64,000 nt of DNA. Source: Chthoniobacterales bacterium (lineage in GTDB: Bacteria > Verrucomicrobiota > Verrucomicrobiia > Chthoniobacterales > JAFAMB01). The stretch spans positions 419 through 64,418 of the forward strand of contig DASWVC010000293.1 in the NCBI GenBank assembly GCA_036401335.1, in the 5' to 3' direction. The notes beneath the pieces are model-generated. The model worked only from the letters and a program-made list of their open reading frames with translations, was not told the DNA's origin and made no database searches. Of the stretch, positions 431 through 22,780 are shown one piece after another. Each line of letters starts with the position of its first letter. Within the stretch, counting starts at the first letter, position 1. The translations under genes and the position numbers were made by a program.

Positions 431-2428
431 CTAGCCGGCGGGCACGCGTGCGGCTGACGCCTGGAGGACGGCTTCCAACTCAGCCCGAACCACAGGCTTC
501 ACCAGTTTGTCGTCCATGCCGGCCGAAACGCACCTCTCCCGTTCTTCATCAAGCGCATTCGCAGTGAGCGCCACAATGTAAGGCTGCCGTGCCGGCCGCA
601 GAAGGGCACGAATTTCCCGGGTTGCTTGCAGGCCGTCAATCCCCGGCATCTGCACATCCATCAGGATGAGGTCGAAAGCTTCGCTTACCGCGGCGTCAAC
701 AGCTTCCCGACCGTTCTCTACCTCCATGATGTTACGGACCCCCAGCTTTTTCAGCAGGGCGACGGCCACGAACCGGTTGACGGCGGTATCGTCGACGATC
801 AGCACGTTGAGATCGGCCAGGGATCGTTGCAGGACCGAAGCTCCGTTGCGTGGACCCCTCACGTCCAGGGGAACGCCCTGATCCGAAATCGCCTGGAGGA
901 AGCGAGCTTTTCTCAAGGGCAGCCCGAGCACGATGGCCGCAGGGTAAAGGCTGGCCCACTCCGACCGGTTCCTGGCCCGAGTCAAGAGAATCAGGGACGA
1001 CCCGTTCATCTGGCTCGACGCCGGAATCTCGCTCCTGCAGGCATCGGCGTCGATGATCAGGTAGCCGGCTCGTGTATTCCTCAGGCTCTCCGCCGGATCT
1101 GAGCGAATCACCACCTCTAGGGCGAGTTCCTCGGCCCAGGTGGCTAACTGCCTAAGCAACCGGACATTCTTGACCATCAGCATCAGTCGTTTGCCGGTCG
1201 ATGCGGCAACGTTCCGGCCAGGTTCGGCGGAAATAACAGGGGGCAAGGAAATGGTAAAATGAAACCGAGTGCCTTTGCCAACGGCACTTTCCACCCAGAT
1301 CCGGCCGCCCATCAGCTTGGTCAAAGTACGACAAATCGAGAGACCCAGTCCCGTGCCTCCGAAATGGCGTGTCGTGGACGCATCCACCTGACTGAATGCT
1401 TGGAACAAGCGGTCGAGCTTTTCTGGTGCTACCCCGATGCCCGTGTCTTCCAGGCTAAAATGAACCATATTCGGCCCATCGAAAGAAGGGTTTACTTCCA
1501 GATAAATCTCACCGCCGGCCGTGAACTTGACCGCGTTGCCCACCAGGTTTAGCAGGATCTGCCGCAAGCGGGTGATGTCACCGAGCACGGTCGCAGGCAG
1601 CTGCGGACTGACCCACGCAATGATGTCAAGATCCTTTGCGAACGCTCCTGGCGCCAACAACTCCATCACTTGGTCGATGGCATCACTGAGGAGGAAGGGA
1701 GTCGATTCGAGTTCAAGTTTGCCTGACTCCATCTTTGACAGGTCAAGGATGTCGTTGATGATGCGCAGCAATGTCTCGCCGGACGTGCGAATGACCTCCA
1801 CCAGATCCTTTTGCGGAGCGCTCAAGGGGGTGTCTGCAAGGACGTCGGCGACTCCTAACACGCCCACCATCGGTGTGCGTATCTCGTGGCTCATGTTGGC
1901 GAAGAATTCCGATTTGGATCTCGTCACTTCCGCCAGTTGGTTGTTCAGCTGGACCAGTTCTGCATTTTTTCCCAACAGCTCGGCTTGCGCCTTTTCAAGC
2001 GCCTGGAACGCCGCCCTGCGCTGCAGCTCGTGCAGGTAACCCTGGGAATGCAAGCGGACGCGCGCCAGCAGTTCAATGCGGTCGGGCAACTTGATCAGGT
2101 AGTCGCTGGCGCCGGCCTCAAACGCTGCTTGTTTGATCACGGGTTGCTCCCGCGTGGACAAGACAATGACAGGAATTTCCCGGGTCTGCGGGCTGTTGCG
2201 GTATTCCTTCAGCAGGTCGAGTCCATTTACCCCGGGCATGACCAAATCCTGTAAAATCACCGTCGGGCAGATTTTCTCAGCCGCTTCGACCGCCCGGGTA
2301 GGATCACTCACGTAGCTGAACGCAATCCCGGCATCGGTGGCCAGCATGCGCCGGATGCCTTCAGCTACCATCGGTTGGTCATCGACCAACAGAACTGAGA
2401 TCCTCTCCGTCGTGTGCTCGCTTTTCAT
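431..2428 (-). CDS. hybrid sensor histidine kinase / response regulator (REC - coiled coil - HisKA - HATPase_c - receiver-like spacer - REC)
   Basis: REC1: VLLVDDQ, PTVILQDLVMPG, DYLIKLPD. H-box: FFANMSHEIRTPM. ATPase boxes: NLVGNAVKFT, DTGIGV, GGTGLGLSI. Degenerate receiver: MLMVKN...LIIDAD. C-terminal REC: VLIVDD, LILMDVQMPGIDG. The track start 2473 is TTG; the ATG at 2428 preceded by GGAGAA is preferred. Confidence 0.9.
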   Translation of the reverse strand: MKSEHTTERISVLLVDDQPMVAEGIRRMLATDAGIAFSYVSDPTRAVEAAEKICPTVILQDLVMPGVNGLDLLKEYRNSPQTREIPVIVLSTREQPVIKQAAFEAGASDYLIKLPDRIELLARVRLHSQGYLHELQRRAAFQALEKAQAELLGKNAELVQLNNQLAEVTRSKSEFFANMSHEIRTPMVGVLGVADVLADTPLSAPQKDLVEVIRTSGETLLRIINDILDLSKMESGKLELESTPFLLSDAIDQVMELLAPGAFAKDLDIIAWVSPQLPATVLGDITRLRQILLNLVGNAVKFTAGGEIYLEVNPSFDGPNMVHFSLEDTGIGVAPEKLDRLFQAFSQVDASTTRHFGGTGLGLSICRTLTKLMGGRIWVESAVGKGTRFHFTISLPPVISAEPGRNVAASTGKRLMLMVKNVRLLRQLATWAEELALEVVIRSDPAESLRNTRAGYLIIDADACRSEIPASSQMNGSSLILLTRARNRSEWASLYPAAIVLGLPLRKARFLQAISDQGVPLDVRGPRNGASVLQRSLADLNVLIVDDTAVNRFVAVALLKKLGVRNIMEVENGREAVDAAVSEAFDLILMDVQMPGIDGLQATREIRALLRPARQPYIVALTANALDEERERCVSAGMDDKLVKPVVRAELEAVLQASAARVPAG

Positions 2429-2543
2429 GGGTAAACTTGTTGGTTCTCCATTCTTTAACGATTGTCCTGACAAGCTTGGATCCCGTTGTTAAATGCAGGC
2501 GGCGCCCGATGCGCAGGCGCGGACATAGAACCGAAGCATCCTT

Positions 2544-3524
2544 TCAACGTAAGAATAGTTGCCTGAGGCGTGGTCCGATTTTTCCCAACGGCAGAATGTC
2601 GGTAGCTGCGCCGAGCTCGGCGGCAGCTTTCGGCATCCCGTAAACGGTGCTGGTTTGCTGATCCTGGGCAATGGTGTGGTACCCGGCATCACGCAGGTGT
2701 TTCAGCCCTTGCGCGCCGTCCCGTCCCATCCCGGTTAACAAAACACCTACCACCGACCCGGTGAAATGCCGCACGGTGCTGTCAAAAAAAACGTCCACGG
2801 ACGGTCGGTAGGAATGTTCTCTCGGCGCGGCCGTGTAACCGATCCGGTGCGGGCTTTTGAAGACAAGGTGATCGCCGGTGGCAGCGACGAGAATGGTCCC
2901 GGCGGTTAGTGAATCGCCCTCGCGGGCCAGCTTCACCGGCAGCGGTGAATGCTCATTTAGATACTGGACGAAGTCCGGCGCAAACCGGGCTTCGATGTGC
3001 TGCACGATCACCACGGCCGGTTCAAAGTGCCGCGGCAGACTGGAAAGGATTGCACTAAGGGCGGTGCTTCCGCCAGCGGATGCACCGATGGCCACAAGCT
3101 TGGTCACGATCGGGCCTGGTTTTAGCTCCTCCGGCATTGAACCCCGGCGGTTCGTGAGGTGCCCGATCTGCGCGATCCTCTCCAGCAAGGCTTTTCCCGT
3201 TTGCCGAGAGCCGGGATGCACAGGGAAATTTACCGCGTCGATGGCGCCGGCCCGCAAGGCTTCCAACACCGCGGGCGAATCTTTTCCCGCCAGCTCTGTG
3301 AGGATCAAAACCCGGCAAGGCGTCCGCTTCATGATGCTTCGCGTGGTTTCCGCGCCGTCCAATGACTGCATCAGGACGAGGTCGGGAGGATCGTCACGAC
3401 ACCTTTCAACCGCTTCAGCCGCGGTCCCGGCAGTCCAGGCAATTTCATGGACCGCAGAAGCCGTGAGCAGTTCGCGCAGGGAATCAACCGCTGAACGGAG
3501 TCCATCGACGATCCCGATTCTCAT
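2544..3524 (-). CDS. cheB: CheB/WspF-like protein-glutamate methylesterase with atypical receiver domain
   Basis: Catalytic Ser/His/Asp contexts GASAGGSTAL, VIVQHI and LTGMGRDGAQG are present. There is an N-terminal receiver-like domain. The start overlaps the cheA stop (ATGA at 3521-3524). Confidence 0.9.
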   Translation of the reverse strand: MRIGIVDGLRSAVDSLRELLTASAVHEIAWTAGTAAEAVERCRDDPPDLVLMQSLDGAETTRSIMKRTPCRVLILTELAGKDSPAVLEALRAGAIDAVNFPVHPGSRQTGKALLERIAQIGHLTNRRGSMPEELKPGPIVTKLVAIGASAGGSTALSAILSSLPRHFEPAVVIVQHIEARFAPDFVQYLNEHSPLPVKLAREGDSLTAGTILVAATGDHLVFKSPHRIGYTAAPREHSYRPSVDVFFDSTVRHFTGSVVGVLLTGMGRDGAQGLKHLRDAGYHTIAQDQQTSTVYGMPKAAAELGAATDILPLGKIGPRLRQLFLR

Positions 3525-5812
3525 CCGGTCGCCTCACCGATCAGGTTGACCACCGCCACCAGCAGGGTCTCGTCGTGAAAGCTTCCCTTGGCCAGGTAAT
3601 GGTCCGCTCCGGCTTCCAAGCCGCGCCGCCGGTCTTCCTCCCGGTCTTTGTAGGAGACAATGATCACCGGGAGCGCTGTTAACCCGGGATCACGTTTGAT
3701 GAGCGAGACAAGTTCAATCCCATCCTGTCGCGGCATGTCCACGTCGGTTACGACCAGGTCGAACTTTCCCGTCCGGACTGCGTTCCAGCCGTCCATGCCA
3801 TCGACCGCGATCTCGACTTCGTACCCCCGCGTCTGGAGCAGTTTTTTCTCCAGCTCCCGCACCGTGAGTGAATCGTCCACAACCAGAATCCGTTTTCGCT
3901 TCTTGTTTGCCTCCCGGGCATCCTCGCGCTGGATGCGGGTCAGGGTGCCCGTCTCGACCAGTTTTTCGATCGAACGAACGGCGTCCGCGACTTCGACGAC
4001 CAACACCGGGGCGCCGTCCTCCATCAGCGCACCGCAGCTGATATCCTTGATTTTACCTAATCGCGGGTCGAGCGGCTGAACGATCAATTCACGTTCACCA
4101 AGAAATTTCTCCACCACCAAACCATAGAGCCGGCCGGCTTGACCGATGATCAGCACGCAGTTTTCCGCGCTCAGGGGCGCTTCTCCCCCGCCGCCGAAGA
4201 TCTGGCTGGCGGAAACCAGCCCGATCTGCTGACCGTCGAAGGAAAAATACTGCCGGCCGCCCACGGCCCGAACCCCCTCTTTAGGCAACCTGAATGCCCG
4301 CGCAACGTGCGCCAGCGGAAACGCGTAGGGTTCACTTTCGATTTGCACGAGCAGCGCCCTGACGATCGAAAGGGTTAAGGGCAGTTGCAGTTGGAAGGTG
4401 GTTCCCGTTCCCCGTTCCGTCGTGATCCGGATGACGCCGCGCACTTCCTTGACCAGCGCCTGAACGACATCCAGGCCCACGCCCCGCCCGGAGATTTCCG
4501 TGACGGTCTGCTTCATCGTAAAGCCAGGCAAAAGGAGAAAGTCCAGCAGCTCAACGGAGCTCATTTTTTCCGTTTCAGCCGCGGTTGTCAGTTGCTTGCG
4601 AACCACGGCGCCTCGCAGCCCCGCCAAATCGATCCCCGCGCCATCGTCGGAAACACTGACCAGGAGGTCACCGGCACTGTGCCGGGCTTCCAGTCTGATT
4701 ACCCCTTCATCAGGCTTGCCGGCGGCCCGGCGTTCCTCGAGCGGCTCAATGCCGTGATCAAACGCATTGCGCACCAGGTGAGTGAGCGGCGCTTCCAGTT
4801 TTTCGAGGATGTCCCGATCGACGTACGTGTTGGGGCCTTGGATCTCGAGCCGGGCTTGCTTGCCGAGCGTCCGGGCCAGGTCGCGGACCATCCGCGGAAA
4901 TCCGAGCAGGCCGTCGCCAAACGGCCGCATCCGGCACGCCAGGGCTTCATTGTAAAGGCGATGCGACAGGTGCGCCGAACGCTGGTCAGAATCCTCTAAA
5001 TCAAGCAGCCGTTCAGACAAGGCCCGGCGGCATTGCGACAATTGGGTTCTGGCTTGATGCACGTGCGCCACCGATGGTCGGACGGGTGTCTCCCGGCCCA
5101 ACGCTTCATGGATTGCGTCGAGGGTCTTGCTCAGCCCGCCCAACTGGCGTTGAACCCGCAGCAGCGACCCCGCCAACGGTTCCAACCGGCGCGAGGCGAT
5201 AAGGGATTCACCCGTCAAGGCAAGCAGCCGATTCAGGTTTGCAGCGGTCACGCGTAAAAACCGCGGCTGAGCCGCCGGTTTTTCGGCCGCTTTGGCGGAC
5301 AATCCGGTGGCTGTCGGCGTACCCGGGACCGTGTCTACCGTTTCGGGCGGGACTGCCGCCGGAAACGGCGGGGTACGCGGGGGCTCCGCGGCGTTGCCCT
5401 GGTGAATCGTGTCGAGTTCGACCAGGTAGTCTGCCATCCCGGGAACCAGCGGCCCGTTCTCCGCTTCCGTGCCGTTCTCAGGCATTTGGGCGATTTGCTG
5501 CATCAGGTCCACTCCGCGCAGGAGCACATCCACCTGGCGAACCAGCAGCACGAGCCGTCCGGTCTGGGCAGCAACAAAGACCTCCTCCATTGCATGCGCC
5601 AGCCGCACAGCCGCTTCACAATTCACCATCCGGGCAGCCCCTTTCAGCGAGTGCGCCGCCCGCATCAATACTTCCAGCCGAGAGGGATCGACGGGTTGGT
5701 GTTCGAGGCCGATCAAATGCTCGGCCAGGACCGCCGCCTGGTTGTTCACTTCCAGCCGGAAGAGCTCCATCATGGAGAAATCGGTGAGATCCGGCGGCAG
5801 GGTGGCACTCAT
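3521..5812 (-). CDS. cheA: CheA/WspE-like histidine kinase with C-terminal receiver (Hpt - kinase - CheW-like - REC)
   Basis: Hpt site AAHSLKGAARMV. N box HLVRNAFDHGIE. G boxes DDGAGID and GRGVGLDVV. CheW-like region. REC: ILVVDDS, DLVVTDVDMP. The ATG at 5810-5812 overlaps the upstream cheW stop (ATGA). The track start 5860 is GTG and would overlap cheW by 52 nt. Confidence 0.9.
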   Translation of the reverse strand: MSATLPPDLTDFSMMELFRLEVNNQAAVLAEHLIGLEHQPVDPSRLEVLMRAAHSLKGAARMVNCEAAVRLAHAMEEVFVAAQTGRLVLLVRQVDVLLRGVDLMQQIAQMPENGTEAENGPLVPGMADYLVELDTIHQGNAAEPPRTPPFPAAVPPETVDTVPGTPTATGLSAKAAEKPAAQPRFLRVTAANLNRLLALTGESLIASRRLEPLAGSLLRVQRQLGGLSKTLDAIHEALGRETPVRPSVAHVHQARTQLSQCRRALSERLLDLEDSDQRSAHLSHRLYNEALACRMRPFGDGLLGFPRMVRDLARTLGKQARLEIQGPNTYVDRDILEKLEAPLTHLVRNAFDHGIEPLEERRAAGKPDEGVIRLEARHSAGDLLVSVSDDGAGIDLAGLRGAVVRKQLTTAAETEKMSSVELLDFLLLPGFTMKQTVTEISGRGVGLDVVQALVKEVRGVIRITTERGTGTTFQLQLPLTLSIVRALLVQIESEPYAFPLAHVARAFRLPKEGVRAVGGRQYFSFDGQQIGLVSASQIFGGGGEAPLSAENCVLIIGQAGRLYGLVVEKFLGERELIVQPLDPRLGKIKDISCGALMEDGAPVLVVEVADAVRSIEKLVETGTLTRIQREDAREANKKRKRILVVDDSLTVRELEKKLLQTRGYEVEIAVDGMDGWNAVRTGKFDLVVTDVDMPRQDGIELVSLIKRDPGLTALPVIIVSYKDREEDRRRGLEAGADHYLAKGSFHDETLLVAVVNLIGEATG

Positions 5813-6528
5813 GCGAGGGTGCGCTCTAAGGCGAGGAAAAGCAGTGGGCCGTCGAGGCACCCAACGTTCTGGCCCTCACAGGGAAGGAGGCCGCGGATGT
5901 AACCCGGAGGCGCTTTTGGCCCCGTCCACGGGACCTGCTGCAACTCCGAGGGACTGAACCGGCGGAGGCCCCGCACTTCATCCACCGGAAACACGAAACG
6001 GGAGCCTTCGCGCACCGCCACGAAGAGCCGGCGGTAAATGGTGCGGCGAGGTCCGGGGACGTTGGGCGCAATGTTTTCCAAACCAAGCAACTCGGCCAGG
6101 GTCACACAAATGAGCAGTTCGCCCCCGATGTTGACGACGCCCAAAACCGCTTTGTTTCGCAGCTGCGGCACGGTATGAATCGGACGATCAACCGCAATCT
6201 CTTGCAAACTGTGCGGCGACAACCCCAGCCACTCGGCGCCAATGCGGAAGATCAGGATGCCCTGCGTAGGCTCGTCCTCAAGGTGCCCGGCACGGGCGAA
6301 ATGTTCTGTCCAATGGTCCATGTAAGCCGGCGGCACTTCCTGCTCAAGCCGGTGCCCCGCGGCTGAAGAATAAACCCCGCAGTTGCGGCAGTGGACCGCA
6401 CCTTTCAAAACGGGGCATTGCCGGTTACCCCAGATGCCAATTTTGTTCCAACAATCGTTTGGCCGGCCAGCTTCGGCCGTGGGCACACTTCCATTGGCCA
6501 GGTTTCCGTTAGCCGAGTTCGCGATCAT
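5809..6528 (-). CDS. cheW: CheW-like coupling protein (WspD position) with N-terminal Cys/His-rich motif
   Basis: CheW-like core: ILIFRIGAEWLGLSPHSLQEI...LGVVNIGGELLICVTLAELLG. N-terminal motif: DCWNKIGIWGNRQCPVLKGAVHCRNCGVY. ATGA overlap with cheR at 6525-6528. Confidence 0.85.
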   Translation of the reverse strand: MIANSANGNLANGSVPTAEAGRPNDCWNKIGIWGNRQCPVLKGAVHCRNCGVYSSAAGHRLEQEVPPAYMDHWTEHFARAGHLEDEPTQGILIFRIGAEWLGLSPHSLQEIAVDRPIHTVPQLRNKAVLGVVNIGGELLICVTLAELLGLENIAPNVPGPRRTIYRRLFVAVREGSRFVFPVDEVRGLRRFSPSELQQVPWTGPKAPPGYIRGLLPCEGQNVGCLDGPLLFLALERTLA

Positions 6529-7757
6529 CGGGTGCCCTCCTGGACCCGACGGGCACGGTCCCTCAACACCCGGGCTGCGGCATGGTTGCCCGAATGTTCC
6601 TGGAGCAAGGCGAGGTGAATGGCAGCCTCGTAATGGTTTGGCTCCAAGTAGAGGGCTTTCCGGTAAAAGCGATCGGCCTGGTCCCGGTCTCCCTCACCGT
6701 CCCGGATAAGCGCAAACAGGTAAAAGAGGGCCGCAGAGGGACCGGCCTTTTGGAGCAGGGCTTCACACGCTTCAGCGGCCTCCGCCAGCCGGCCCTGATC
6801 GGCCAGACGGCCAGCTTGCTCCAGCTCCGGCAAAGTGGCGGCCCCGGCCGCAGGCGTTTCCGTGGCCGTGCGGCTCGGCCTTGGCAACTTAGGCTGGTGG
6901 CCGGTCAACGCCGCGTTTGGGGTCAGGCAAATTTTCCTGCGAATGGGTTTAGGAGCTGGCCAAAGTGCCGGTTCGCGCCGGCGAAAGCCAAACGCCATCG
7001 GCAAACGCGCCGAAGCAAAGCCGTGGTTGGTCAGTAAACCGGCTTCGGCCGGACCGACAAACAGCAGTCCGTCCGGCACAAGAAGTTTTTCCAAACGATC
7101 CAGGGCCTTACCCTGTGTCTCCTCGTCAAAATAGATCAACAGGTTGCGGCAGAAGATGAATTGGTACGGTTCACAGAACACCCCGAAATTCTCGGCGACG
7201 ACGTTCCCGGGTGCGAACCGAACACAGGCGCGAACCCGTTGATCCAATTGCGCACCGGCATCGGTCTCCGCGAAAAACCGCGCCCGGACGTCAGGGTCGG
7301 TTCCACGAAAGGAATGGTTCCCGAACACGCCGGCCTGCGCGACCTGAAGGGCGCGTTCACTCACGTCAAACGCATCAATCCGGAATCTGTCGGCTGTCAG
7401 TCCCAGCTCAAGCAAGCTTATCGCCAGAGAATAGGGTTCTTCACCGGTCGAACAGGGAACGCTGAGAACACGGATCATTCCGGATGCGAAAAACAGCGTC
7501 TCACGAACGCGGTGCTGGAACGCGTTGATGCCTTCAGGGTGCCGGAAAAAGAAAGTCTCCGGGATCACGACCGCCTCAATCAGGTTCCGCATCTCCGGTG
7601 CTGAGCGTCGCAAAAGGTCAACGTACGACGGAACATCCTCAAGCTGGTTGGCGCGGAGCCGCTCCGCCACGGCACGTCTGATCAGATCCGCGCCAACCGA
7701 AGCAACGTCGAGGCCGATCCCTGCTTTCAGCAGCGCGATGACTTCGGTGAATGGCAT
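6525..7757 (-). CDS. cheR: CheR/WspC-like MCP methyltransferase with C-terminal TPR region
   Basis: Motifs ETFFFRHPEG and LSVPCSTGEEPYSLAI. The C-terminal TPR-like helices read LADQGRLAEAAEACEALL...YRKALYLEPNHYEAAIHLALL. TGATG overlap with the upstream cheW at 7755-7759. Confidence 0.9.
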   Translation of the reverse strand: MPFTEVIALLKAGIGLDVASVGADLIRRAVAERLRANQLEDVPSYVDLLRRSAPEMRNLIEAVVIPETFFFRHPEGINAFQHRVRETLFFASGMIRVLSVPCSTGEEPYSLAISLLELGLTADRFRIDAFDVSERALQVAQAGVFGNHSFRGTDPDVRARFFAETDAGAQLDQRVRACVRFAPGNVVAENFGVFCEPYQFIFCRNLLIYFDEETQGKALDRLEKLLVPDGLLFVGPAEAGLLTNHGFASARLPMAFGFRRREPALWPAPKPIRRKICLTPNAALTGHQPKLPRPSRTATETPAAGAATLPELEQAGRLADQGRLAEAAEACEALLQKAGPSAALFYLFALIRDGEGDRDQADRFYRKALYLEPNHYEAAIHLALLQEHSGNHAAARVLRDRARRVQEGTR

Positions 7758-8215
7758 CAGGTTTCCACCAGTTCACGGAACAGCGCATCCCGTATGCCTG
7801 GGGTGAGTAACTGTTCAATCGCAACCCGCTGAATAAAGTTCCCCTCATGATTGGCCATCCGGCCTAAGCAGGGCGCACCGTCCGATGCCACCCCGGTTTC
7901 CGAAAACGCTCCCGCGTTGAATTGCATGGTTTCGGTTACGTGTTCGGCCATCAAACCGAGCAGCCGCTTCCGCTCACCCTGCGTGGCCTCCACCAGGATG
8001 ATGCGGGTGCTTAGGCGGCGGGCCGCTGGCTCACCCCGGATCATGAGGCTCAGGTCCACCACAGGCACCACGGCTCCTCGATAATTGAACAATCCGGATA
8101 TTCCGGCCGGCACCTGCCAAAGCCCATTCAGCTTCAACCGCGGCAGGACTTCCACAATCCGGTTGGCCGGAATCGCATACCGGGCCGGGCCAAGCTGAAA
8201 AAGGATGAAAAGCAT
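7757..8215 (-). CDS. cheW: CheW-like coupling protein (WspB position)
   Basis: 152 aa, MLFILFQLGPARYAIPANRIVEVLP...FNYRGAVVPVVDLS, typical of a single CheW domain. It sits in the operon between the MCP and cheR. Confidence 0.85.
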   Translation of the reverse strand: MLFILFQLGPARYAIPANRIVEVLPRLKLNGLWQVPAGISGLFNYRGAVVPVVDLSLMIRGEPAARRLSTRIILVEATQGERKRLLGLMAEHVTETMQFNAGAFSETGVASDGAPCLGRMANHEGNFIQRVAIEQLLTPGIRDALFRELVET

Positions 8216-8242
8216 GCGAATCTCGTTCGGTTGGCGTGACCC

Positions 8243-9736
8243 CTAGGCCGGCTGGGCTTTAAACAAGGCAATGCCGGTGCGCAGTTCGGTTCCCGTAAAG
8301 TTCAAACGGTCGATCACCATGGTTGATTGTCGAAGCGACTCAGCGGTCTGCTGGGCGGAGTCCGCCAGCTGCACCAGGGCTTCACTGATCTGCTGAGCGC
8401 CGGTCGCCTGCGATTGCATCCCTTCGTTGACGGTCTCGAATTGCGGCGTCAGCGCCTGGACCTGCATGATGATCTCGGCCAGTTGCCGGCTGACCTGCTC
8501 CACTTCGTGCACGCCGCGGCGGACCTCATCTGAGAATTTCTCCATGCCCATGACCCCGCCAGAAACAGCCGACTGCATCTCCTTCACGATTTGTTCGATG
8601 TCGTAGCTCGCAACCGCGGTCTGGTCGGCCAGGCGGCGGATCTCTGTCGCTACCACCACGAACCCACGGCCGTACTCGCCGGCCCTCTCCGCCTCAATGG
8701 CGGCATTCAGGGACAGCAGGTTTGTCTGGTCGGCCACCTTCGTGATGGTGGTCACAACCTGGTTGATGTTGGTTGCCTTTTCGTTTAACGCCGCAAGGTT
8801 CGCACTGATGACGCCGGACGCTTCGGCCACTTGCCGCATGGTAGCTTCCATCCGGGTTAACCCGGTCTGGCCGTTCCCGGCCAGGTCCGACGTCTGCTCC
8901 GCCACTTCCGTTACCTGCCGGATCGTTTTTAGCAATTCTTTGGAGGTGGCCGCAATCTGCCGGGAAGTCGCGCCGATCTCGCTGGTGGCAGAGACCACTT
9001 CTGACGCGGTGCCCTGCTGCTTCTTGGCGGTCACCGCGATCTCGCCGACGGAGTTAGTGACCTGCAGGACGGACCGCTCCAACTGGCTGATCAACCCGTT
9101 GATCGCGCGCACCACCGAGTAACAGATCAACATGGCAAGGGCAACGCTGAGAACGACGCCGACTGTTAACATGAACCGTGCCTGACTGGAGATTGCGTTT
9201 GCCTTATGAATCGCTTGCGCGGATTCGTTCTCCGTGTCCGCGAGCTCACGGTCGACCAGGTCCAGAAATTTCTGGTACGCCGGCTGCAGTTGCTCTTGCA
9301 AGAGGGCGTAGGCTTCTTTGTCCTTTTGTTGTCGGCTCAACTTCAAGACGTCTTCAAGGGTGGCCTCAAAGCTTGCATAAGCGCCCTCCAAGGTCCGCAA
9401 GAACTCGAGACGGTTCGATCGGGTTTGCTTCGCAGCGTAGCCTTGAACGAGGTCCTGCACCCTTTTTCCAGTCTCGGTAATTTGCTTGTCCAGCCTCGAC
9501 AGGTCTTCCGGCCGTTCCAGGCCGATGTGCAGCAGCGCCTGCGACGACTGACTCTGGGCTTCCAACGCGATTTTGCCCATCAGAATGGCCGCCGGGAAAC
9601 TGTCGGTCGCCAGGTAGGTGGTCTGCCTTTGAATCGCCGTCAGCCTTTGGAAAGCGTACAGGCTCATGCAGAGGGTGATCAGGATCGTCGCCCCAAATCC
9701 TGCCGTGATTCGTTTGCCGATCGTCCAGTTCTTCAT
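8243..9736 (-). CDS. methyl-accepting chemotaxis protein (WspA position)
   Basis: Two TM segments ([20 protein letters not shown]; [21 protein letters not shown]). The signalling-domain tip reads [34 protein letters not shown]. The ATG at 9734-9736 is preceded by GGAGGA. The 72-codon N-terminal extension in the track (to 9952) is R/P-rich and rejected. Confidence 0.9.
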
Positions 9737-10222
9737 GCTTCCTCCAGGCGTTATCGGCCGTACCGGGGTGCCATTTAGCGGGATCGACACTTGGAGTGGG
9801 GCCCGGCCGGCATCGACGGTTTGCGACGGAAGAATGGACGGGGCGCGGACTTTTCGTGGCCTTGGCCGCGGGAATGAAGTAATGAGGCGGTTGAAATGGC
9901 GGACTCGGAGTACAAAAGCCAGCTCCCCCCGGAGCGGGTGGCATTTTCCCAACGGCCGGTTACCGGCCTGGCGGGCGACCGTCGACCCGCGTTAACCGGC
10001 GGGGTTATTGCCCGTCCGATAACACCGGCACTGCTGAAAAACGCCTTCAGCTGGCTCCTTTGCGCTGCCCTCGCCGGTTGGGCCTTGGCGAAAGCACTGC
10101 CCGGAAAACGAAAGCGGAGGGCACTCCCCGGACACCGGCCTCCCCCCGGCCGAGTTGAGAAAAGTCCGGCGGCGCACCCGCCTGACAAAGGCTTGGGTCT
10201 GCCCAACTTTCTGGCGTTGACC

Positions 10223-11356
10223 ATGGAACTTGCACTGGCTGTGGGGTGGAATGTGGTGCGGCAGAAGACGGGGACGTGGCCCGTCCGCCGGTCCGCGAAA
10301 AGCAGGCCGGCGGTCACCCACGCCGCAGCATCCCCCGCCGTGCCGGTTCAGCCGGCTGCCGGTGAAAGGAGGCCTGCGGAAGCGGCGGATTCCCGCGGTC
10401 GCAAAGCGAGCAACGATAAGGCCGAAAAAGCCCGGGCAGGCAGGTCTCGCCTGGCCAAGGTTTTCGACCTCTGCAAACGAACGGCGGCGGAGTGGTCCCA
10501 GGACAAATGCCCGCAACTCGGCGCCGCCTTAGCCTACTACACCGTTTTTTCGCTGGCGCCGCTGGTGCTGGTGTTGCTGGCCGTGTTCGGCCTGGTCTTC
10601 GGCGGCAGCGAGCACGCTCGGGAAAAGCTGACCGAGCAACTGCGCTACCTGATCGATCCCAGCGGGGTCAAGGTCATCCAGGATATTGCGGCGAACGCCT
10701 CAGAGCCCAAGGGCGGCATCCTCGCAACCATCATCGGTTTGGTGGTCGGGCTTTTTGGCGCGAGCGGCGTCTTTGGCCAATTGCAGGACGCGCTTAACAC
10801 GATCTGGGGTGTTAAACCAAAGCCCGGTCGGGGAATAGCAGGGTTTGTGCGCACGAGGTTCCTGTCATTTTCGATGGTTGGCGGGGTGTGTTTCCTGCTC
10901 CTGGCCTCCCTCACCGTGGAGAGCGTGCTCCGGGGTTTTAACGCCTACCTCAAGAATCTGCTGCCCGGCGGAGACATTGTTGCGCTGATTCTCTTTTTCG
11001 CCTTCGACATCGGCGTCGTGCTGTTGCTCTTCGCCATGATCTTCCGGTACCTGCCAGATGCCAAGATTGCGTGGCGCGACGTCTGGATCGGTGCGGCGCT
11101 GACCGCGGTTCTCTTTGCCATCGGCAAATTTGTGTTGGCGCTCTACCTGGGCAGCGGCGCCGCCGGCTCGGCTTACGGCGCAGCCAGTTCCCTGATCACG
11201 CTGCTGCTGTGGATTTTCTACGCTGCCCAGATCTTGCTTTTTGGCGCTGAGTTTACGCAGGTGTACGCGAACACGTACGGCTCACAGGTCGAGCCCCAGG
11301 ACCATGCGGTCAGGGTGGAACGGACAGAAGTTGAAGTACCCGCGCCACAGCCCTGA
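10223..11356 (+). CDS. YihY/BrkB (ribonuclease BN-like) family inner-membrane protein
   Basis: Family hallmark PQLGAALAYYTVFSLAPLVLVLL, followed by about 6 TM segments. The start is uncertain. The first ATG that gives a plausible N-terminus is 10223; the track ORF begins at 9896. Confidence 0.8.
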   Translation: MELALAVGWNVVRQKTGTWPVRRSAKSRPAVTHAAASPAVPVQPAAGERRPAEAADSRGRKASNDKAEKARAGRSRLAKVFDLCKRTAAEWSQDKCPQLGAALAYYTVFSLAPLVLVLLAVFGLVFGGSEHAREKLTEQLRYLIDPSGVKVIQDIAANASEPKGGILATIIGLVVGLFGASGVFGQLQDALNTIWGVKPKPGRGIAGFVRTRFLSFSMVGGVCFLLLASLTVESVLRGFNAYLKNLLPGGDIVALILFFAFDIGVVLLLFAMIFRYLPDAKIAWRDVWIGAALTAVLFAIGKFVLALYLGSGAAGSAYGAASSLITLLLWIFYAAQILLFGAEFTQVYANTYGSQVEPQDHAVRVERTEVEVPAPQP

Positions 11357-11573: not shown

Positions 11574-11882
11574 ATGAAACTTTACGTAGGAAATCTATCC
11601 TTCAACACAACTGCAGACGACCTTCAGAAAGCTTTTGAGGCTTTCGGAAGCGTGACTGAAGTCGCCTTAATCAGCGACCGCGAAACTGGTCAGTCGCGCG
11701 GCTTTGCCTTCGTCACCATGGGAAGCCGAGCCGAAGCCAAGGCGGCGATTGAAGGCATGCAGGGTCGTGAACTCGACGGGCGCACGCTGACGGTTAATGA
11801 AGCGCGCCCGAAAGAAGATCGTTCCGGCGGCGGCGGCGGCAATCGTTCCGGCGGTCGTCCTTATTCCCCGTCACGCCGCTAA
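11574..11882 (+). CDS. RRM-type RNA-binding protein with Gly/Arg-rich tail
   Basis: RNP-2 KLYVGNL, RNP-1 RGFAFVTM, C-terminal SGGGGGNRSGGR. A long upstream non-coding region lies at 11357-11573. Confidence 0.9.
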   Translation: MKLYVGNLSFNTTADDLQKAFEAFGSVTEVALISDRETGQSRGFAFVTMGSRAEAKAAIEGMQGRELDGRTLTVNEARPKEDRSGGGGGNRSGGRPYSPSRR

Positions 11883-15765: not shown

Positions 15766-16137
15766 ATGCTCCCCTTAGCCATTATGGACACCGAGGAGTT
15801 CGTTCTTATCGCTTTGACCCGATCCGACAAGGGACGTTTGAAGCAGCGGGCGTTTCTGGAAGGTGAAGATTGGATGGTGCAATGGAATTTTCTTTCCCGA
15901 CTGGTCTACACTGCCATGCGCATGGAGCGGGGGGAGCCAGTCGCGCAAAACTCGGCCCGGTTTGTGCGATTTTTGGAAAATGGGTGTGCGGCGCACCACC
16001 TCAGTTACCGTGAGTCGGCGGTGCTTTCGTTCCACCACTGGCTGGGGCTGGACCTGAGCCTGCACGAAGTCCGCACGCGGATCTCCGAGTTTCCTATCAC
16101 TCTGGTGAGCGACAACGGCCGGCAGTACGAATTCTGA
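15766..16137 (+). CDS. hypothetical protein
   Basis: 123 aa with ordinary amino-acid composition and high third-position GC, unlike the antisense 373-aa R/G/P-rich ORF. No recognisable motif. Confidence 0.4.
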   Translation: MLPLAIMDTEEFVLIALTRSDKGRLKQRAFLEGEDWMVQWNFLSRLVYTAMRMERGEPVAQNSARFVRFLENGCAAHHLSYRESAVLSFHHWLGLDLSLHEVRTRISEFPITLVSDNGRQYEF

Positions 16138-16203
16138 CTGCTTGCCCTGCGGCCAGGACTGCGAACCGGCACCGACACTTTCGTCGTTCCCAGAGCTTGA
16201 GCA

Positions 16204-17232
16204 TTGCCTGCTGCTGGGCGAAAACTCTGGCCAGGAGTGAGTCGGCAGGCCGTTTCCACATTGTCCGTTGTGATGCTCGCCCTCGTGGCCGGGGCGCTTG
16301 CCCTTGCCGAAAGCGGCCTGTGGACGTGGGCCTACGAAGCCGTTCACCCACCCTCTTTCCACTGGCCGGACCGCCGTCCGATCGGCTCGCTCTTCCTCGC
16401 TCGCGCCTCCCCGGGATGGACCGGCAACCCGCGCGGCTGGTTTGGCGCCGGGGACCTGGACATCGCATCCGGACCGGGTCGCGGGCAGTTCCGCCAGCGG
16501 CTGCAGGGGCTGGCGGAGGCTTGCATCGGAAACCTTCGCGCAGCGAACGCTCAAGGGATCATCATATGGGATCTGGAAGGTGAGCAATACCCCCACCCCT
16601 CTGGTTCGTTCGTGGGCGACCCGACAAACCTGAAGCGAATCGCCCCGGAGATGGACGAGGTGGCGGACGATTTTCTCAGACGGTTCCGTGATGCCGGATT
16701 CCGCGTGGGGTTGTGCATCCGTCCCCAGTCCCTCTCGTTCCGATCCGACGGTTCCTTTCGCCAACATGAACCGGTTCTCGATGCTACCGCCCTTTACCGA
16801 GAACTGGACCGCAAAATAAGGTATGCGGAGAACCGCTGGGCGTGCACGCTGTTTTACGTTGACTCCAATTTTGGATTTCAGAACCTGGGCCTCCACTGGG
16901 TCGGCATCTTTCGGCGTTTACACGCAGCGCATCCCGGTGCGCTGCTCATCCCCGAACACGGCTCGTGCGCGTACCTCGGGGTGAGCGCCCCCTACACCTC
17001 GCTGCAGGCAGGACGTTCCTGGGTCGGCCGCTTTTTTTCGGCCGATGGTTGCGGGGCCTCACGCTTCCATGGATTCCGGGTCATCAACGTTGCAGACACG
17101 CCTGCCGCGGCTTTGCCCGCCTTGGCCCGGCAGGTTGCGGGAGGCGACGTTCTGCTTTTTCGGGCGTGGGTTGGAGGGCAGGATCTTGCCCTGGTGCAAG
17201 CCGCCTATGGGCGGGCTGGAGGGTGGCCGTAA
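16204..17232 (+). CDS. uncharacterised family X protein, short form (membrane anchor + conserved C-terminal domain only)
   Basis: N-terminal anchor LSVVMLALVAGALALA. The conserved blocks DRRPIGS, NPRGW, IIIWDLEGEQYP, APEMDEVADDF, GFRVGLCIRP, RWACTLFYVDSN, HPGALLIPEH and GDVLLFRAW are shared with 20240..21940 and 28193..30052. Confidence 0.8.
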   Translation: MPAAGRKLWPGVSRQAVSTLSVVMLALVAGALALAESGLWTWAYEAVHPPSFHWPDRRPIGSLFLARASPGWTGNPRGWFGAGDLDIASGPGRGQFRQRLQGLAEACIGNLRAANAQGIIIWDLEGEQYPHPSGSFVGDPTNLKRIAPEMDEVADDFLRRFRDAGFRVGLCIRPQSLSFRSDGSFRQHEPVLDATALYRELDRKIRYAENRWACTLFYVDSNFGFQNLGLHWVGIFRRLHAAHPGALLIPEHGSCAYLGVSAPYTSLQAGRSWVGRFFSADGCGASRFHGFRVINVADTPAAALPALARQVAGGDVLLFRAWVGGQDLALVQAAYGRAGGWP

Positions 17233-17345
17233 ACCGTCAGGAGTCGACGCGGGGTCCATTGCGCGTCCTTTCCAGGTACGCTACCATGGCCGCGGCTGCC
17301 TGGCGGCGCGGGTTTTTCAGCAACCCACGCCAACACGCAACCTTT

Positions 17346-18719
17346 ATGGATCGTCGCTCTTTTGTGCGTCAACTCGCGGCAGCGTCCGGTGTTGGATTGC
17401 TTGCCGCCAGCCGGGCTCTGGCCCAACCGGTCAGAGGGCCCGAACCGTGGGACCTCGACTTTCCGGAGGGGACCGCGCCAGTGCCGGCCGATTTTCTCGG
17501 CCTGAGCTTTGAGACCGATCGGATCGCGGACGGCGACTACCTTCTGCCGGGAAACCAGAGCCTGGTAGCGCTCGTGCGCGGCCTTGGTCCGGCTGGCACC
17601 GTTCGTATCGGCGGGAACAGCAGCGATCGCCCGGCGGGTGCATCGCCCGCCCGGGTGGGCCGTGTTCAACTCGAAAGGCTTGCCAGCTTTCTTGAGGTCA
17701 CCGGGTGGCGGCTTATTTACGGGCTGAACCTCGGGTCGGGCACCGCCGAGCGCGCGGCGGCTGAGGCGCAGCTCGTTGCGGAGACCGTCGGAACCCGCCT
17801 GTTGGCCTTTCAGATCGGGAACGAGCCCGACGTTTACGCCGGCAACGGTTTGCGACCCGGCGGCTACGGTGTGGCCCCGTACGTGCAAGACTGGAACCGG
17901 TTTTCCGCCGCGATCCGCGACAAAGTGCCAGGCGCACGGTTTGGCGGCCCGGATTTGTCCTCGGACACGAGCTGGCTGGCGCGGTTTGCGCAGGGGAGTT
18001 CGTTCAAACCGGCATTCCTTTCCCACCATTTCTACAGTGAAGGCCCGGCCGGCAATCCCAATGTCACGGAGGCACGCATGCTCGCCTCCACCCCCAGCCT
18101 GCTCCACCGGCTCGATGTCATCCGGCAAGCCGCCCCGTCCGGCCTGCCGCTGCGTATGACCGAAATCAACTCGGTCTGGAACGGGGGTCAACCGGGAGTA
18201 AGCGATACTTTCGCCGCGGCGGTTTGGGCCTTCAACGCCCTCTGCTTGATGGCCGCGCGCGGGTGGACGGGCGTGAACTTCCACGGCAATCAGGGCGCTT
18301 GTTACTCACCGTTGCAGCGTCAGGCGGACGGCCAATTTTATGCCGCGCCCATCTACTACGGACTCAAGCTGTTTTCTGCCCTGGGTCCCTCCTCTGTCGT
18401 CGCCAGCCCCGACTTTGATGCCGGCGCGAGCCTCCGGCGCTACGCGATGCGTGACAAAGAAGGGCGGAAACGGGCCGTCATCGTCAACCTTGATGCAAAC
18501 CGGCCAGGCGTAACGACCTTGCGGGCGAGCACGCGGGGATGGCGGCTCCGCCGGTTCAGTGCGAAGAGTTTGCCCGGACCGAAGGCACCTCCTTACGGAC
18601 TGCCCCGGCCGGAAACGTTGTTTGGACTGGACGGGCCCGGCGAACGGCTGCAGTCGATCGGCGACAGCATACCCGTCGCGATTGGGCCGCTCACCGTACT
18701 CGTCTTAGAAATTTTGTAA
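17346..18719 (+). CDS. TAT-exported glycoside hydrolase family 79-like protein (beta-glucuronidase/heparanase-like)
   Basis: Twin-arginine signal MDRRSFVRQLAAASGVGLLAASRALAQ. GH79-like blocks FLGLSFE, VRIGGNSSD, FQIGNEPD (acid/base context), HHFY and LRMTEINS (nucleophile context). The track ORF start 16965 is rejected. Confidence 0.8.
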   Translation: MDRRSFVRQLAAASGVGLLAASRALAQPVRGPEPWDLDFPEGTAPVPADFLGLSFETDRIADGDYLLPGNQSLVALVRGLGPAGTVRIGGNSSDRPAGASPARVGRVQLERLASFLEVTGWRLIYGLNLGSGTAERAAAEAQLVAETVGTRLLAFQIGNEPDVYAGNGLRPGGYGVAPYVQDWNRFSAAIRDKVPGARFGGPDLSSDTSWLARFAQGSSFKPAFLSHHFYSEGPAGNPNVTEARMLASTPSLLHRLDVIRQAAPSGLPLRMTEINSVWNGGQPGVSDTFAAAVWAFNALCLMAARGWTGVNFHGNQGACYSPLQRQADGQFYAAPIYYGLKLFSALGPSSVVASPDFDAGASLRRYAMRDKEGRKRAVIVNLDANRPGVTTLRASTRGWRLRRFSAKSLPGPKAPPYGLPRPETLFGLDGPGERLQSIGDSIPVAIGPLTVLVLEIL

Positions 18720-19020
18720 CGAGAACCAGGCGCGCCGTCCTGGCCAGCAGCGGAGCTTTGCAAGGAAGGTCAGCACCATTTTGCGGCGCAGCCACCCTGC
18801 CTTGAAAACGGGGCAGCAGGTAAATGAGCCCGAAGGTCGCCGCCCACAAGGCTGAAAGGAAAAGGTGAAAAAGGTCGTCGGCGAATTCAGGCATGCCAAA
18901 CGCACGCGAAAGCCGAAGGGCGGTTGCAATCGAATACAGCGTACCCAGGCTGGCCAACGACCCAAAAAGCAGGTTCAACTCAAGCGACATGGGGAGAACA
19001 AGGTTCAGTGTGTCCAGCAA
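18691..19020 (-). CDS. hypothetical small membrane protein (doubtful)
   Basis: 109 aa with two hydrophobic stretches. It overlaps the 3' end of the GH79-like gene by 29 nt. No motif. Confidence 0.25.
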   Translation of the reverse strand: MLDTLNLVLPMSLELNLLFGSLASLGTLYSIATALRLSRAFGMPEFADDLFHLFLSALWAATFGLIYLLPRFQGRVAAPQNGADLPCKAPLLARTARLVLVTKFLRRVR

Positions 19021-19153
19021 TTTTGCTTTGCGAGGCCGATTCGCAACCTAATATTTTTGAGAAAACGCGAATTCCTGCCCGTTTCCCAATGTTTGGGGAC
19101 GATTTCCGCCCCGTCCAGTGGGACGTGCACCCACGCAACGCAGCCGACCCGAA

Positions 19154-20140
19154 TCACACCGCCACTTCCCGGTGACGCCGCCGGCGGAAATATGCCCGGA
19201 CATCCGCCTCTTTAAGGTCTCCGAAGTCTTTGACGCTGTGGATGATGCTATGGCCGCGCGCCAGGAGGTTTTCCGGCCGGTCGGGTAAGCCCCGGAAGCG
19301 AATGGCAAACGGCTCCTCCCGGCCGCTGCCGTCCTGAAGCGCCAAGTCGACAGACTTCACGCACATCGATACGATCATGTCCTCGACCAGGGGAGTCGGC
19401 AGCCAGACGCAGGGACGGGCCAGAAGGCTCCGGGCGTGGAGCGCGCGGACGCAGGCGTGAGAAAGCGCATAGCCGCCGCCGTAACAGTGTTCGCCCACCC
19501 GGAACCCGTTGATGAAGGCGTGACGAATCGTGTCTCGAATCAGCCGAAAACGTCCCCAAAAGGCAATCTGAACAGTGACGCCGCCGCACTTGGTGGCGCG
19601 CCAGACCGTAAATTGCTTTAACAGCTTGTCCAGTGCCCGACCCAGAGGCCTCACCGTCTCGTCGCCGCGTTCCGGCAGGCTGGGGTCCCGTATCGTTCCA
19701 ATCATGCCCACTTCAGGATGGCTCGCGAACTGGCGGGACAGCGCTTGTGAGAACGGCCGGATCACCAGTGCGTCGGTGTCCAGCTTTACCGCGAACTCAA
19801 ACGGCAACGCCCGTTTGGTTAATTCGTGCAACCCTGCCAGGACGGCAACGGCACAGCCGGCGGCCCACCCGCTGCCCCGTCCGTTCCGCGGATTTTTGAT
19901 TTCGGTGAATCGGTCCCGGACCGTGTCCGGGACAGCGCGGTTGAACCGCGCCGGCCCGGGTTGATCGTCAACCAGGACCAAATGGTAGTTGCCGCCCTCA
20001 AAGGTCTCCAGGGATTCCACGAGGTCGCGTACACGCTCCACCTCCCGTTCGCCGGGTCCCACGGGGACGACGACCGCAAATCCTGCCGATCGCCCCGGTA
20101 CCGCCCGGCTGAGTTCTTCGTCCGTCCCTGTTCGGCTCAC
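19154..20140 (-). CDS. uncharacterised GT-A-like glycosyltransferase family Y, copy 1
   Basis: Blocks FAVVVPVGPGE, HLVLVDD, NPRNGRGSGW, KLDTDALVI (DxD-like), GEHCYGGGYALS and SIIHSVKD. Clear paralog of 60163..61101. GTG start. Confidence 0.8.
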   Translation of the reverse strand: MSRTGTDEELSRAVPGRSAGFAVVVPVGPGEREVERVRDLVESLETFEGGNYHLVLVDDQPGPARFNRAVPDTVRDRFTEIKNPRNGRGSGWAAGCAVAVLAGLHELTKRALPFEFAVKLDTDALVIRPFSQALSRQFASHPEVGMIGTIRDPSLPERGDETVRPLGRALDKLLKQFTVWRATKCGGVTVQIAFWGRFRLIRDTIRHAFINGFRVGEHCYGGGYALSHACVRALHARSLLARPCVWLPTPLVEDMIVSMCVKSVDLALQDGSGREEPFAIRFRGLPDRPENLLARGHSIIHSVKDFGDLKEADVRAYFRRRRHREVAV

Positions 20141-20239
20141 CCGGCATACTTTTAGCGCATTTGAGGTGGGCGCAAGTTCCGCTTTCGCTTAACCTTTCGT
20201 CCGCAGGCCCGGCGCGGCCTAAATGTCTGTCCCGCTTTT

Positions 20240-21940: not shown

Positions 21941-21952
21941 AACCCGACGCGG

Positions 21953-22702: not shown

Positions 22703-22780
22703 AGGGAGAAGGGCTGGCCGGCCCTCGGAGAACCGATCACGGGCGGGACGTAGCGGCGGGACGGGCGACGCACGGCTTGA

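Follow-up and report, generated by a model that had tools for sequence, protein, structure and literature searches.

A Wsp-type chemosensory operon of a Chthoniobacterales bacterium with a predicted chimera of WspR receiver and hybrid kinase as its terminal product

The chemosensory operon described here lies in a stretch of 64,000 nucleotides of contig DASWVC010000293.1, in the following called the window, which stems from the metagenome-assembled genome (MAG) of a soil bacterium of the Chthoniobacterales (Verrucomicrobiota). It consists of seven open reading frames (ORFs) on the minus strand at positions 431–9736, arranged in the order wspA-B-C-D-E-F and followed by a gene for a hybrid histidine kinase. 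Judged from its sequence, this terminal gene encodes a chimera, in which the receiver and the coiled-coil stalk of the response regulator WspR are joined, at the boundary to the GGDEF domain, to a cytoplasmic hybrid kinase module resembling Caulobacter ShkA. The arrangement is real and widespread, and kinase outputs of such kind are already known.

Wsp identity of the operon

An earlier note on this DNA, made from the letters alone, had listed the seven ORFs with their coordinates and domains and had recognized the wspA-B-C-D-E-F order. The ORF list and Pfam agree with the former (Table 1), and the gene order, the Pfam domains and the identity to proteobacterial Wsp proteins agree with the latter. 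The junctions were recovered exactly on inspection of the sequence, including the gap of 115 nt in front of the kinase gene: four of the five junctions upstream of it are overlapping stop and start codons (TGATG at 7755–7759; ATGA at 6525–6528, 5809–5812 and 3521–3524) and the remaining one is a gap of 27 nt. GGDEF, EAL or HD domains were not found by Pfam in any of the seven operon proteins.

The core proteins closely resemble their proteobacterial counterparts. Over the full length, WspE shares 54% identity with the Azoarcus protein and 51% with that of Burkholderia cenocepacia. For WspA, the identity amounts to 61% with its Azoarcus counterpart, measured over the signalling domain, and to 48% with the B. 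cenocepacia one, and WspF is 48–51% identical to proteobacterial WspF. Moreover, WspC is a fusion of CheR with tetratricopeptide repeats (TPR), a hallmark of the alternative cellular function (ACF)/Wsp class (PMC3447774), and WspE is a CheA with a C-terminal receiver and without a P2 domain. The N-terminus of WspD carries a four-cysteine signature at residues ~28–60, C-x11-C-x9-C-x2-C (DCWNxIG...C...HCRNC; DCWNKIGIWGNRQCPVLKGAVHCRNCGVY), which according to the alignment is common to the verrucomicrobial relatives and to the WspD proteins of Azoarcus and Burkholderia, and which might serve in metal binding or redox chemistry. According to a survey of Wsp systems no function is known for the WspD motifs, and neither cysteine nor zinc is mentioned there (PMC8552884). 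Taken together, the cluster is a genuine chemosensory operon of the Wsp type (ACF class) in the genome of a member of the Chthoniobacterales.

WspF deviates from the other proteins of its kind. Its CheB receiver does not have the phospho-acceptor aspartate, since residues ~47–57 read PDLVLMQ----SLDG, whereas all six comparators aligned, four of them from Verrucomicrobiota and the others from Azoarcus and B. cenocepacia, have PDLVLMDLxMPxMDG. Strand beta1 of the receiver is altered as well (IVND to IVDG), and the methylesterase domain looks intact. The loss of the aspartate was seen again in an independent Logan assembly. Phospho-feedback adaptation has therefore probably been lost in this genome. 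In Pseudomonas, loss of wspF locks the Wsp system in the on state.

The terminal kinase and its origin

The N-terminal part of the terminal gene product is of the WspR type. Residues 1–170, used as query, retrieved the two WspR structures 3BRE (E 6.8e-53) and 3I5A (E 2.8e-50), and the next-best match was PleD (E 1e-17). Kinase residues 10–163 match 3BRE, P. aeruginosa WspR, through the whole stalk with ~58% identity, and the same degree of identity is reached to Azoarcus WspR up to the boundary of stalk and GGDEF domain. In a direct alignment the protein tracks WspR exactly until the residue where GGDEF starts, i.e., ELVQLNN is followed by QLAEVTRSKSEFFANMSHEIRTP. The earlier note had called the receiver and stalk WspR-like, which these comparisons confirm. 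The key residues of the receiver, D16, D17, D61, S91 and K113, are intact. An AlphaFold2 (AF2) model, built from an alignment of 77 sequences and with a mean predicted local distance difference test score of 80, shows a single helix at residues 117–198, which connects receiver alpha5 via the stalk with helix 1 of the dimerization and histidine phosphotransfer (DHp) domain, where H181 is located.

Downstream of the stalk, the domain search of the 431–2428 product proposed in the earlier note returned HisKA, HATPase_c and Response_reg and no GGDEF, in agreement with the order of receiver, kinase and receiver claimed there; in full, the architecture is REC-stalk-HisKA-HATPase-pseudoREC-REC. The nearest NCBIfam models are BarA-, TorS- and RcsC-type hybrid kinases, all under the cut-off. 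The kinase core is intact, with H181 as well as N, G1 and G2 boxes, and so is the C-terminal receiver with D546, D547, D591, T622 and K644. Among 77 family members, all these boxes, the H box included, and the key residues of both receivers show complete or at least 90% conservation. The spacer between core and C-terminal receiver, described earlier as receiver-like, is a degenerate receiver according to its match to the REC profile (hhalign probability 91.7%, E 7.7e-7) and to the receiver-like beta/alpha topology of residues 414–514 in the AF2 model. Its D460 is invariant or nearly so, and the acidic pair and the lysine are lost. In Opitutaceae-type relatives the region is still scored as Response_reg by Pfam (a third REC in protein P0105). 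The stop codon at 431–433 follows the C-terminal receiver without a histidine phosphotransfer (Hpt) domain.

The kinase module beyond the stalk resembles ShkA of Caulobacter crescentus. Full-length ShkA (6QRJ) is the top solved match in Foldseek (E 4.4e-31), where LvrB (8VC9), a solved REC-kinase hybrid regulator, is also among the matches, and kinase residues 167–665 align with ShkA residues 4–478 of 484 (E 5.1e-73, ~34% identity). It was shown that ShkA, composed of DHp, CA (catalytic), Rec1 (pseudo-receiver) and Rec2 domains, relays to the separate Hpt protein ShpA and further to TacA, and that it is switched on when cyclic di-GMP (c-di-GMP) binds Rec1 and displaces the DDR motif of the linker (PMC6969517). 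By analogy, c-di-GMP might also gate the window kinase by acting on the pseudo-receiver, and the protein would then integrate Wsp phosphorylation with the c-di-GMP level of the cell. The module can be aligned end to end with ShkA, and R324 and R344 (numbered as in the paper, i.e., chain index plus 12) are kept as R486 and R506. However, four of the six c-di-GMP contacts are not conserved: Y338 is replaced by V, I340 by G and Q351 by R, and S347 falls in a four-residue beta5-alpha5 segment that is absent from the window kinase. Furthermore, the DDR tether reads G-A-S, and in ShkA the exchange Y338A by itself severely impairs activity in vivo (PMC6969517). Gating in the manner of ShkA is thus not supported although the architecture is shared, and we regard it as quite improbable.

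A kinase in a Wsp system is also present in B. cenocepacia, and work by Cooper from 2014 is reportedly a further source for WspH and this H-type Wsp system. For WspH and WspHRR, genetic analyses were performed and c-di-GMP was measured (O'Rourke, 2015, PMC4324302; Kessler, 2021, PMC8552884). The WspH receiver has ~70% sequence similarity to WspR, wspA and wspE mutants depend on WspH for their wrinkly phenotype, with RowR as proposed target of WspH, and c-di-GMP levels are unchanged in the B. cenocepacia Wsp mutants (PMC4324302; PMC8552884). A search of the available literature for later work on WspH and RowR yielded nothing after 2021. Like the window kinase, WspH combines a WspR-type receiver with HisKA-HATPase in place of GGDEF in a complete wspA-F cluster, and both would signal by phosphorylation and not by c-di-GMP. 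In contrast, WspH has no pseudo-receiver, second receiver or Hpt, and its gene forms a transcription unit of its own on the 5' side of wspA whereas the window kinase gene is located 3' of wspF. At the B. cenocepacia locus, retrieved with a REC plus HisKA query, WspH is a protein of 363 residues (REC, weak HisKA, HATPase) encoded 5' of wspA-F. The broad survey of Wsp systems reported neither 3' H-systems nor H-systems outside Burkholderia (PMC8552884).

These similarities, together with the 52% identity of the two receivers, would fit a common origin, in which the window kinase is a WspH ortholog that arose by one ancestral fusion, was later relocated within the cluster from its 5' to its 3' side and acquired additional receivers. 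Four lines of comparison show instead that the window fusion is independent of WspH. First, the junctions are offset, as WspH leaves WspR ~25 residues earlier (RDEAL followed by DFLSHDMRSP) than the window kinase does. Second, the two kinase cores share only 26% identity (E 5e-18), while the window core is 45–52% identical to unrelated generic hybrid kinases. Third, each receiver is nearer to WspR (59–60% for the window kinase, 64–68% for WspH) than to the other. Fourth, at the 14 signature positions of H-systems in REC and stalk, the window kinase has the H-type residue at one, the R-type residue at four and neither at nine, as counted by mapping Table 1 of PMC8552884 by hand, with validation on P. 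aeruginosa and Burkholderia sequences. The small size of WspH, its missing second receiver and its 5' position also argue against orthology, which is considered very improbable. In a neighbour-joining tree of 129 receiver-stalk modules the outputs interleave and the window clade lies apart from WspH, but with 137 columns and no bootstraps its branching is too uncertain to count as primary evidence.

The first Burkholderia match taken as a candidate for WspH (H68) was rejected, because it consists of an orphan CheB and a WspR-like REC-GGDEF protein. This locus on chromosome 2 of B. cenocepacia (NZ_CP091013.1; locus L087, 10854–12999) has an orphan CheB-like gene directly followed by a gene for a WspR-like REC-stalk-GGDEF protein (GGEEF). 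The receiver of this protein shares 57% identity with that of the window kinase and ~75% with P. aeruginosa WspR. In the literature, B. cenocepacia is described as lacking wspR.

Linkage to the operon, proposed output and neighbourhood

An NCBI protein entry from a MAG labelled 'Chthoniobacterales bacterium' is 100% identical to the kinase, and more than 100 homologs with 45–64% identity were found in soil and freshwater metagenomes and in MAGs labelled Verrucomicrobia, Verrucomicrobiae and Opitutaceae. A complete wspA-F cluster with a 3' gene for a REC-kinase-REC protein recurs at five loci (L002, L003, L005, L006 and L008), and the same layout is partly seen at L004/L007 and L010; the kinase identity at these loci is 44–62%. 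In these relatives, the annotated distance from wspF to the kinase gene varies from an overlap (L004) through 35–47 nt (L002, L003, L006) to 141 nt (L005). These observations bear on whether the kinase is the Wsp output at all, or whether its gene is an unrelated neighbour with a promoter of its own and its own upstream kinase. The gap of 115 nt, compared with the four overlapping junctions and the gap of 27 nt upstream, would fit such a neighbour, as would a close homolog that stands alone among transposase genes (P0005, see below). However, the linkage of wspF and kinase gene is kept across 44–62% identity with all these gap lengths, the N-terminal receiver is specifically of the WspR type, and the operon encodes no other response regulator that could serve as output. 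Moreover, the earlier note had named a promoter or terminator in this gap as speaking against a single unit, and a scan of 2429–2543 for sigma-70 promoter and terminator consensus, to which other promoter types are invisible, found none; the RNA fold of the gap is unremarkable (z = 0.16) and nothing in it resembles a terminator. The gap shrinks to 70 nt if the in-frame TTG at 2473 is the start codon. An unrelated neighbouring gene is therefore hardly credible.

Some of the relatives are remarkable for their context. The homolog P0005 (locus L001, 10001–12430; 62% identity) bears an Hpt domain and is an orphan outside any wsp operon, with IS91, Tn3 and IS21 transposase genes, an integrase gene, a gene with a PocR domain and a stand-alone receiver gene as neighbours; being surrounded by transposase and integrase genes suggests that the kinase gene is mobile. 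The syntenic loci L008 and L009 come from MAGs labelled 'uncultured Bifidobacteriaceae', and their proteins are 44–46% identical to the verrucomicrobial ones; as this label is implausible for such a wsp operon, these contigs are probably mis-binned or mislabelled. In the Opitutaceae-type kinases (L002, L003), the receiver-stalk at residues ~10–150 is 81% identical to Azoarcus WspR. Such identity across phyla suggests exchange between Betaproteobacteria and Verrucomicrobiota and hints that the Wsp system or module was transferred horizontally in fairly recent times. A scan of a genome collection with the full protein returned 80 loci, which matched mostly by the kinase core and contained only four true relatives (L007–L010); the matches in Burkholderiaceae (L079) and Rhodoferax (L042), for example, have no wsp neighbours.

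The earlier note had proposed that the operon feeds a multistep phosphorelay. As kind of output a phosphorelay is the most reasonable inference, while the multistep relay is incomplete for this copy, which has no Hpt domain of its own and no Hpt gene within the 64 kb. According to the proposed mechanism, the membrane receptor WspA would control the autophosphorylation of the CheA-receiver hybrid WspE, and phosphorylated WspE would in turn phosphorylate D61 in the N-terminal receiver of the kinase. The resulting change would pass along the continuous helix of alpha5, stalk and DHp and alter autophosphorylation at H181, from where the phosphoryl group would move on to D591 of the C-terminal receiver. 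From D591 it would reach an Hpt domain, which in most of the close relatives is located in cis and here would be a separate ShpA-like protein encoded elsewhere, and the relay would end at a response regulator presumably controlling transcription. A precedent for the second step is found in Rhodospirillum centenum, where CheA3 phosphorylates the receiver of CheS3 (PMC3868531). As a whole, the explanation by a chain of WspA, WspE, chimeric kinase, Hpt and regulator is considered probable.

The question of the Hpt domain was approached from several sides. Most of the closest relatives are proteins of ~790 residues with a C-terminal Hpt that has an intact HKLK(G/S)AA motif, whereas the window kinase and a subset of the relatives have none. 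The gene 3' of the stop at 431 is unrelated and methyltransferase-like, and an Hpt remnant was found neither 3' of the stop nor anywhere in the 64-kb window nor 3' of the Hpt-less relatives. A local phmmer search of all window ORFs for additional receivers and Hpt domains found none outside the operon, with a limited sensitivity that let it miss the weak CheB receiver, and no receiver or DNA-binding regulator gene was found elsewhere in the 64-kb window.

Several points weigh against the proposed relay. With neither an Hpt nor a response-regulator gene in the window, the sequence at hand does not suffice to complete it. A promoter of a type other than sigma-70 could lie in the 115-nt gap, and the adaptation feedback may be non-canonical in this genome, given that the CheB receiver has no aspartate. 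The individual phosphotransfer steps, the sign of regulation and the target are all inferred, as is phosphotransfer in the family of WspR-receiver kinases in general. Finally, phosphorylation of the CheS3 receiver inhibits the kinase, so that the sign of control may differ (PMC3868531). A wiring of this kind, in which phosphorylated WspE switches a constitutive kinase off, or in which the C-terminal receiver is only a sink and an orphan regulator is phosphorylated directly, can be drawn from the R. centenum system, where the receiver of CheA3 acts as a sink next to the inhibition of the kinase through CheS3 REC1 (PMC3868531). It would also agree with the proposal that WspH targets the OmpR-type regulator RowR with no Hpt in between (PMC4324302; PMC8552884), and with the lack of an Hpt in the window kinase and part of its relatives. 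In contrast, phosphorylation of WspR activates through the same type of stalk, the suppression of constitutively active wspA and wspE mutants by loss of wspH in Burkholderia implies positive wiring, and the Hpt in cis with its intact histidine motif in most close relatives argues for the C-terminal receiver as a relay station. Negative or direct wiring is thus rather unlikely, although it has a real chance of being correct, and the relay through D591 to an Hpt is preferred.

A functional link to exopolysaccharide (EPS) is only a guess. The earlier note had placed an exosortase/EPS locus of >45 kb beside the operon, which turned out to be neither adjacent nor contiguous (Table 1): the polysaccharide genes start 15 kb from the operon and form a loose mosaic, interspersed with alpha-galactosidase, amidase, short-chain dehydrogenase/reductase and CobW GTPase genes, and the flanks of the operon are entirely different in the relatives, i.e., the EPS neighbourhood is not conserved. 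Upstream of wspA lies a divergent ORF for a YihY/BrkB-family membrane protein (9896–11356, plus strand), which has an N-terminal extension of ~190 residues of low complexity, rich in arginine, proline and alanine; this extension is probably an over-called start that overlaps the region upstream of wspA. The ORF is followed by a gene for a small RNA-binding protein of the RRM type with a glycine/arginine-rich tail (11574–11882, plus strand). Between the operon and the polysaccharide genes, at 15775–24511, there are large ORFs of 373, 584, 328, 566 and 249 residues, for which NCBIfam gave no match and Pfam at most a weak Glyco_hydro_39 hit, below threshold, in the ORF of 584 residues.

Table 1. 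Features of the operon, the terminal kinase and the distant polysaccharide genes in the 64-kb window
Feature	Position	Strand	Basis or remark
wspA-like chemoreceptor, 497 aa	8243..9736	-	Pfam 4HB_MCP_1 (PF12729) and MCPsignal (PF00015)
wspB-like CheW, 152 aa	7757..8215	-	Pfam CheW; stop overlaps wspC start
wspC-like CheR methyltransferase with C-terminal TPR, 410 aa	6525..7757	-	Pfam CheR_N, CheR, TPR families
wspD-like CheW with N-terminal 4-Cys signature, 239 aa	5809..6528	-	Pfam CheW
wspE-like CheA-receiver hybrid, 763 aa	3521..5812	-	Pfam Hpt-HATPase_c-CheW-Response_reg
wspF-like CheB methylesterase	2544..3524	-	Pfam Response_reg (weak) and CheB_methylest; NCBIfam CheB
Intergenic gap between wspF and kinase gene, 115 nt	2429..2543	-	ORF coordinates
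Terminal hybrid kinase, 665 aa	431..2428	-	Pfam Response_reg x2, HisKA 171-236, HATPase_c 283-396
WspR-type receiver, kinase residues 9-130	2039..2404	-	match to PDB 3BRE
WspR-type coiled-coil stalk, residues 131-170, continuous with DHp helix 1	1919..2038	-	WspR alignment, AF2
HisKA (H181) and HATPase_c core, residues 171-396	1241..1918	-	Pfam; matches ShkA, GacS, RetS
Pseudo-receiver, residues 412-515	884..1195	-	hhalign, AF2 topology, aligns with ShkA Rec1
Intact C-terminal receiver, residues 540-660	449..811	-	Pfam Response_reg 542-655
Wzt-like ABC ATPase	24751		first polysaccharide gene
Glycosyltransferases	27027, 46256, 56569, 62191
Pyruvyl transferases	34048, 53439
Deacetylase of the polysaccharide set	42441
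Exosortase gene	48164-49750
PrsT-like TPR protein	50850

Module reuse and comparison with known systems

The receiver-stalk of WspR is not restricted to GGDEF partners. Among 1.84 billion cluster representatives, 405 clusters match it at E <= 1e-30. Within the best 150 representatives, a kinase core is present in about 72, for half of them together with a further receiver, compared to ~17 with GGDEF, 14 with a class III nucleotidyl cyclase and seven with SpoIIE/PP2C, and the remaining partners include HD-GYP, GAF and PAS; the classes come from a local classification of the representatives and a Pfam scan of 36 members, and as the ranking favours relatives of the query these counts are not unbiased frequencies. 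As judged from these domain combinations, kinase fusions of the WspR receiver-stalk are common and the module is promiscuous. A more far-reaching idea is that of a second-messenger bypass, in which an ancestral two-step route from Wsp via c-di-GMP to a kinase was compressed into one polypeptide with a single continuous helix between phospho-switch and kinase, independently of WspH. It derives from the facts that Wsp produces c-di-GMP in Pseudomonas, that a ShkA-class kinase binds c-di-GMP in Caulobacter and that the contacts are lost here. Such a bypass is improbable in our assessment; if true, the WspR stalk would prove to be a portable actuator, able to drive either a cyclase or a kinase.

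With respect to novelty, the claim of the earlier note that an exchange of the WspR output for a kinase has not been characterised in a complete Wsp-order operon has to be withdrawn as a general statement, in view of the WspH genetics (PMC4324302; PMC8552884), a catalogue from 2012 (PMC3447774) and CheS3. The operon nevertheless extends true Wsp systems to the Verrucomicrobiota and documents a 3'-terminal kinase output, which was reported absent by the only broad Wsp survey (PMC8552884). The WspR cyclase was replaced by a kinase at least twice and with different kinase modules, and the operon provides another, independent approach to what kinase-type Wsp outputs do. Moreover, the clean junction makes the protein a natural system to study how one phospho-switch actuates different catalytic outputs.

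Among the characterised systems, the Wsp operon of P. aeruginosa with WspR (PA3702, 3BRE) has the same gene order, the CheR-TPR fusion, the CheA-receiver hybrid and the WspD signature. It differs by its GGDEF output, while the window kinase has no GGDEF domain and hence would not synthesize c-di-GMP directly, and by the host phylum. ShkA has the same DHp-CA-pseudoREC-REC layout and, like the window kinase, no Hpt in cis, which sets it apart from most relatives of the window kinase with their fused Hpt, but the N-terminal receiver is missing in ShkA. In the Che3 cluster of R. centenum, an ACF cascade, a CheA-receiver hybrid phosphorylates the receiver of a second REC-kinase, CheS3, as proposed for the window kinase (PMC3868531). 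The CheS3 receiver is not known as WspR-type, and the substrate of CheS3 is the single-domain CheY3 encoded in the Che3 cluster, whereas Pfam and local phmmer searches found no stand-alone CheY or receiver gene in the operon or in the 64-kb window. A full-length match from Niveispirillum (H81, locus L091) was rejected as a CheS3-like comparator, since it is a generic REC-HK-REC protein with a non-WspR receiver outside a wspA-F cluster. FlmD of Comamonas was likewise discarded as candidate for a Wsp output of the kinase type; it is a PilH-like regulator with a single domain and belongs to a pathway of the type IV pili (Tfp) class. LvrB of Leptospira (8VC9) is a hybrid regulator of receiver and kinase as well, but it is encoded outside any chemosensory operon.

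The same class of output architecture, REC-HisKA-HATPase(-REC)(-HPT), was catalogued with bioinformatic methods by Munoz-Martinez et al. (2012), who found HisKA and HATPase, sometimes with an additional REC or HPT, in ~40% of the multidomain regulators of cheR-TPR (ACF) clusters, with examples from Burkholderia, Methylobacterium and Polaromonas (PMC3447774). This catalogue does not include a functional or evolutionary analysis of the verrucomicrobial lineage. Seen against these systems, the operon is an independent, phylum-crossing variant of the Wsp/ACF pathway with a kinase output and not a new signalling principle.

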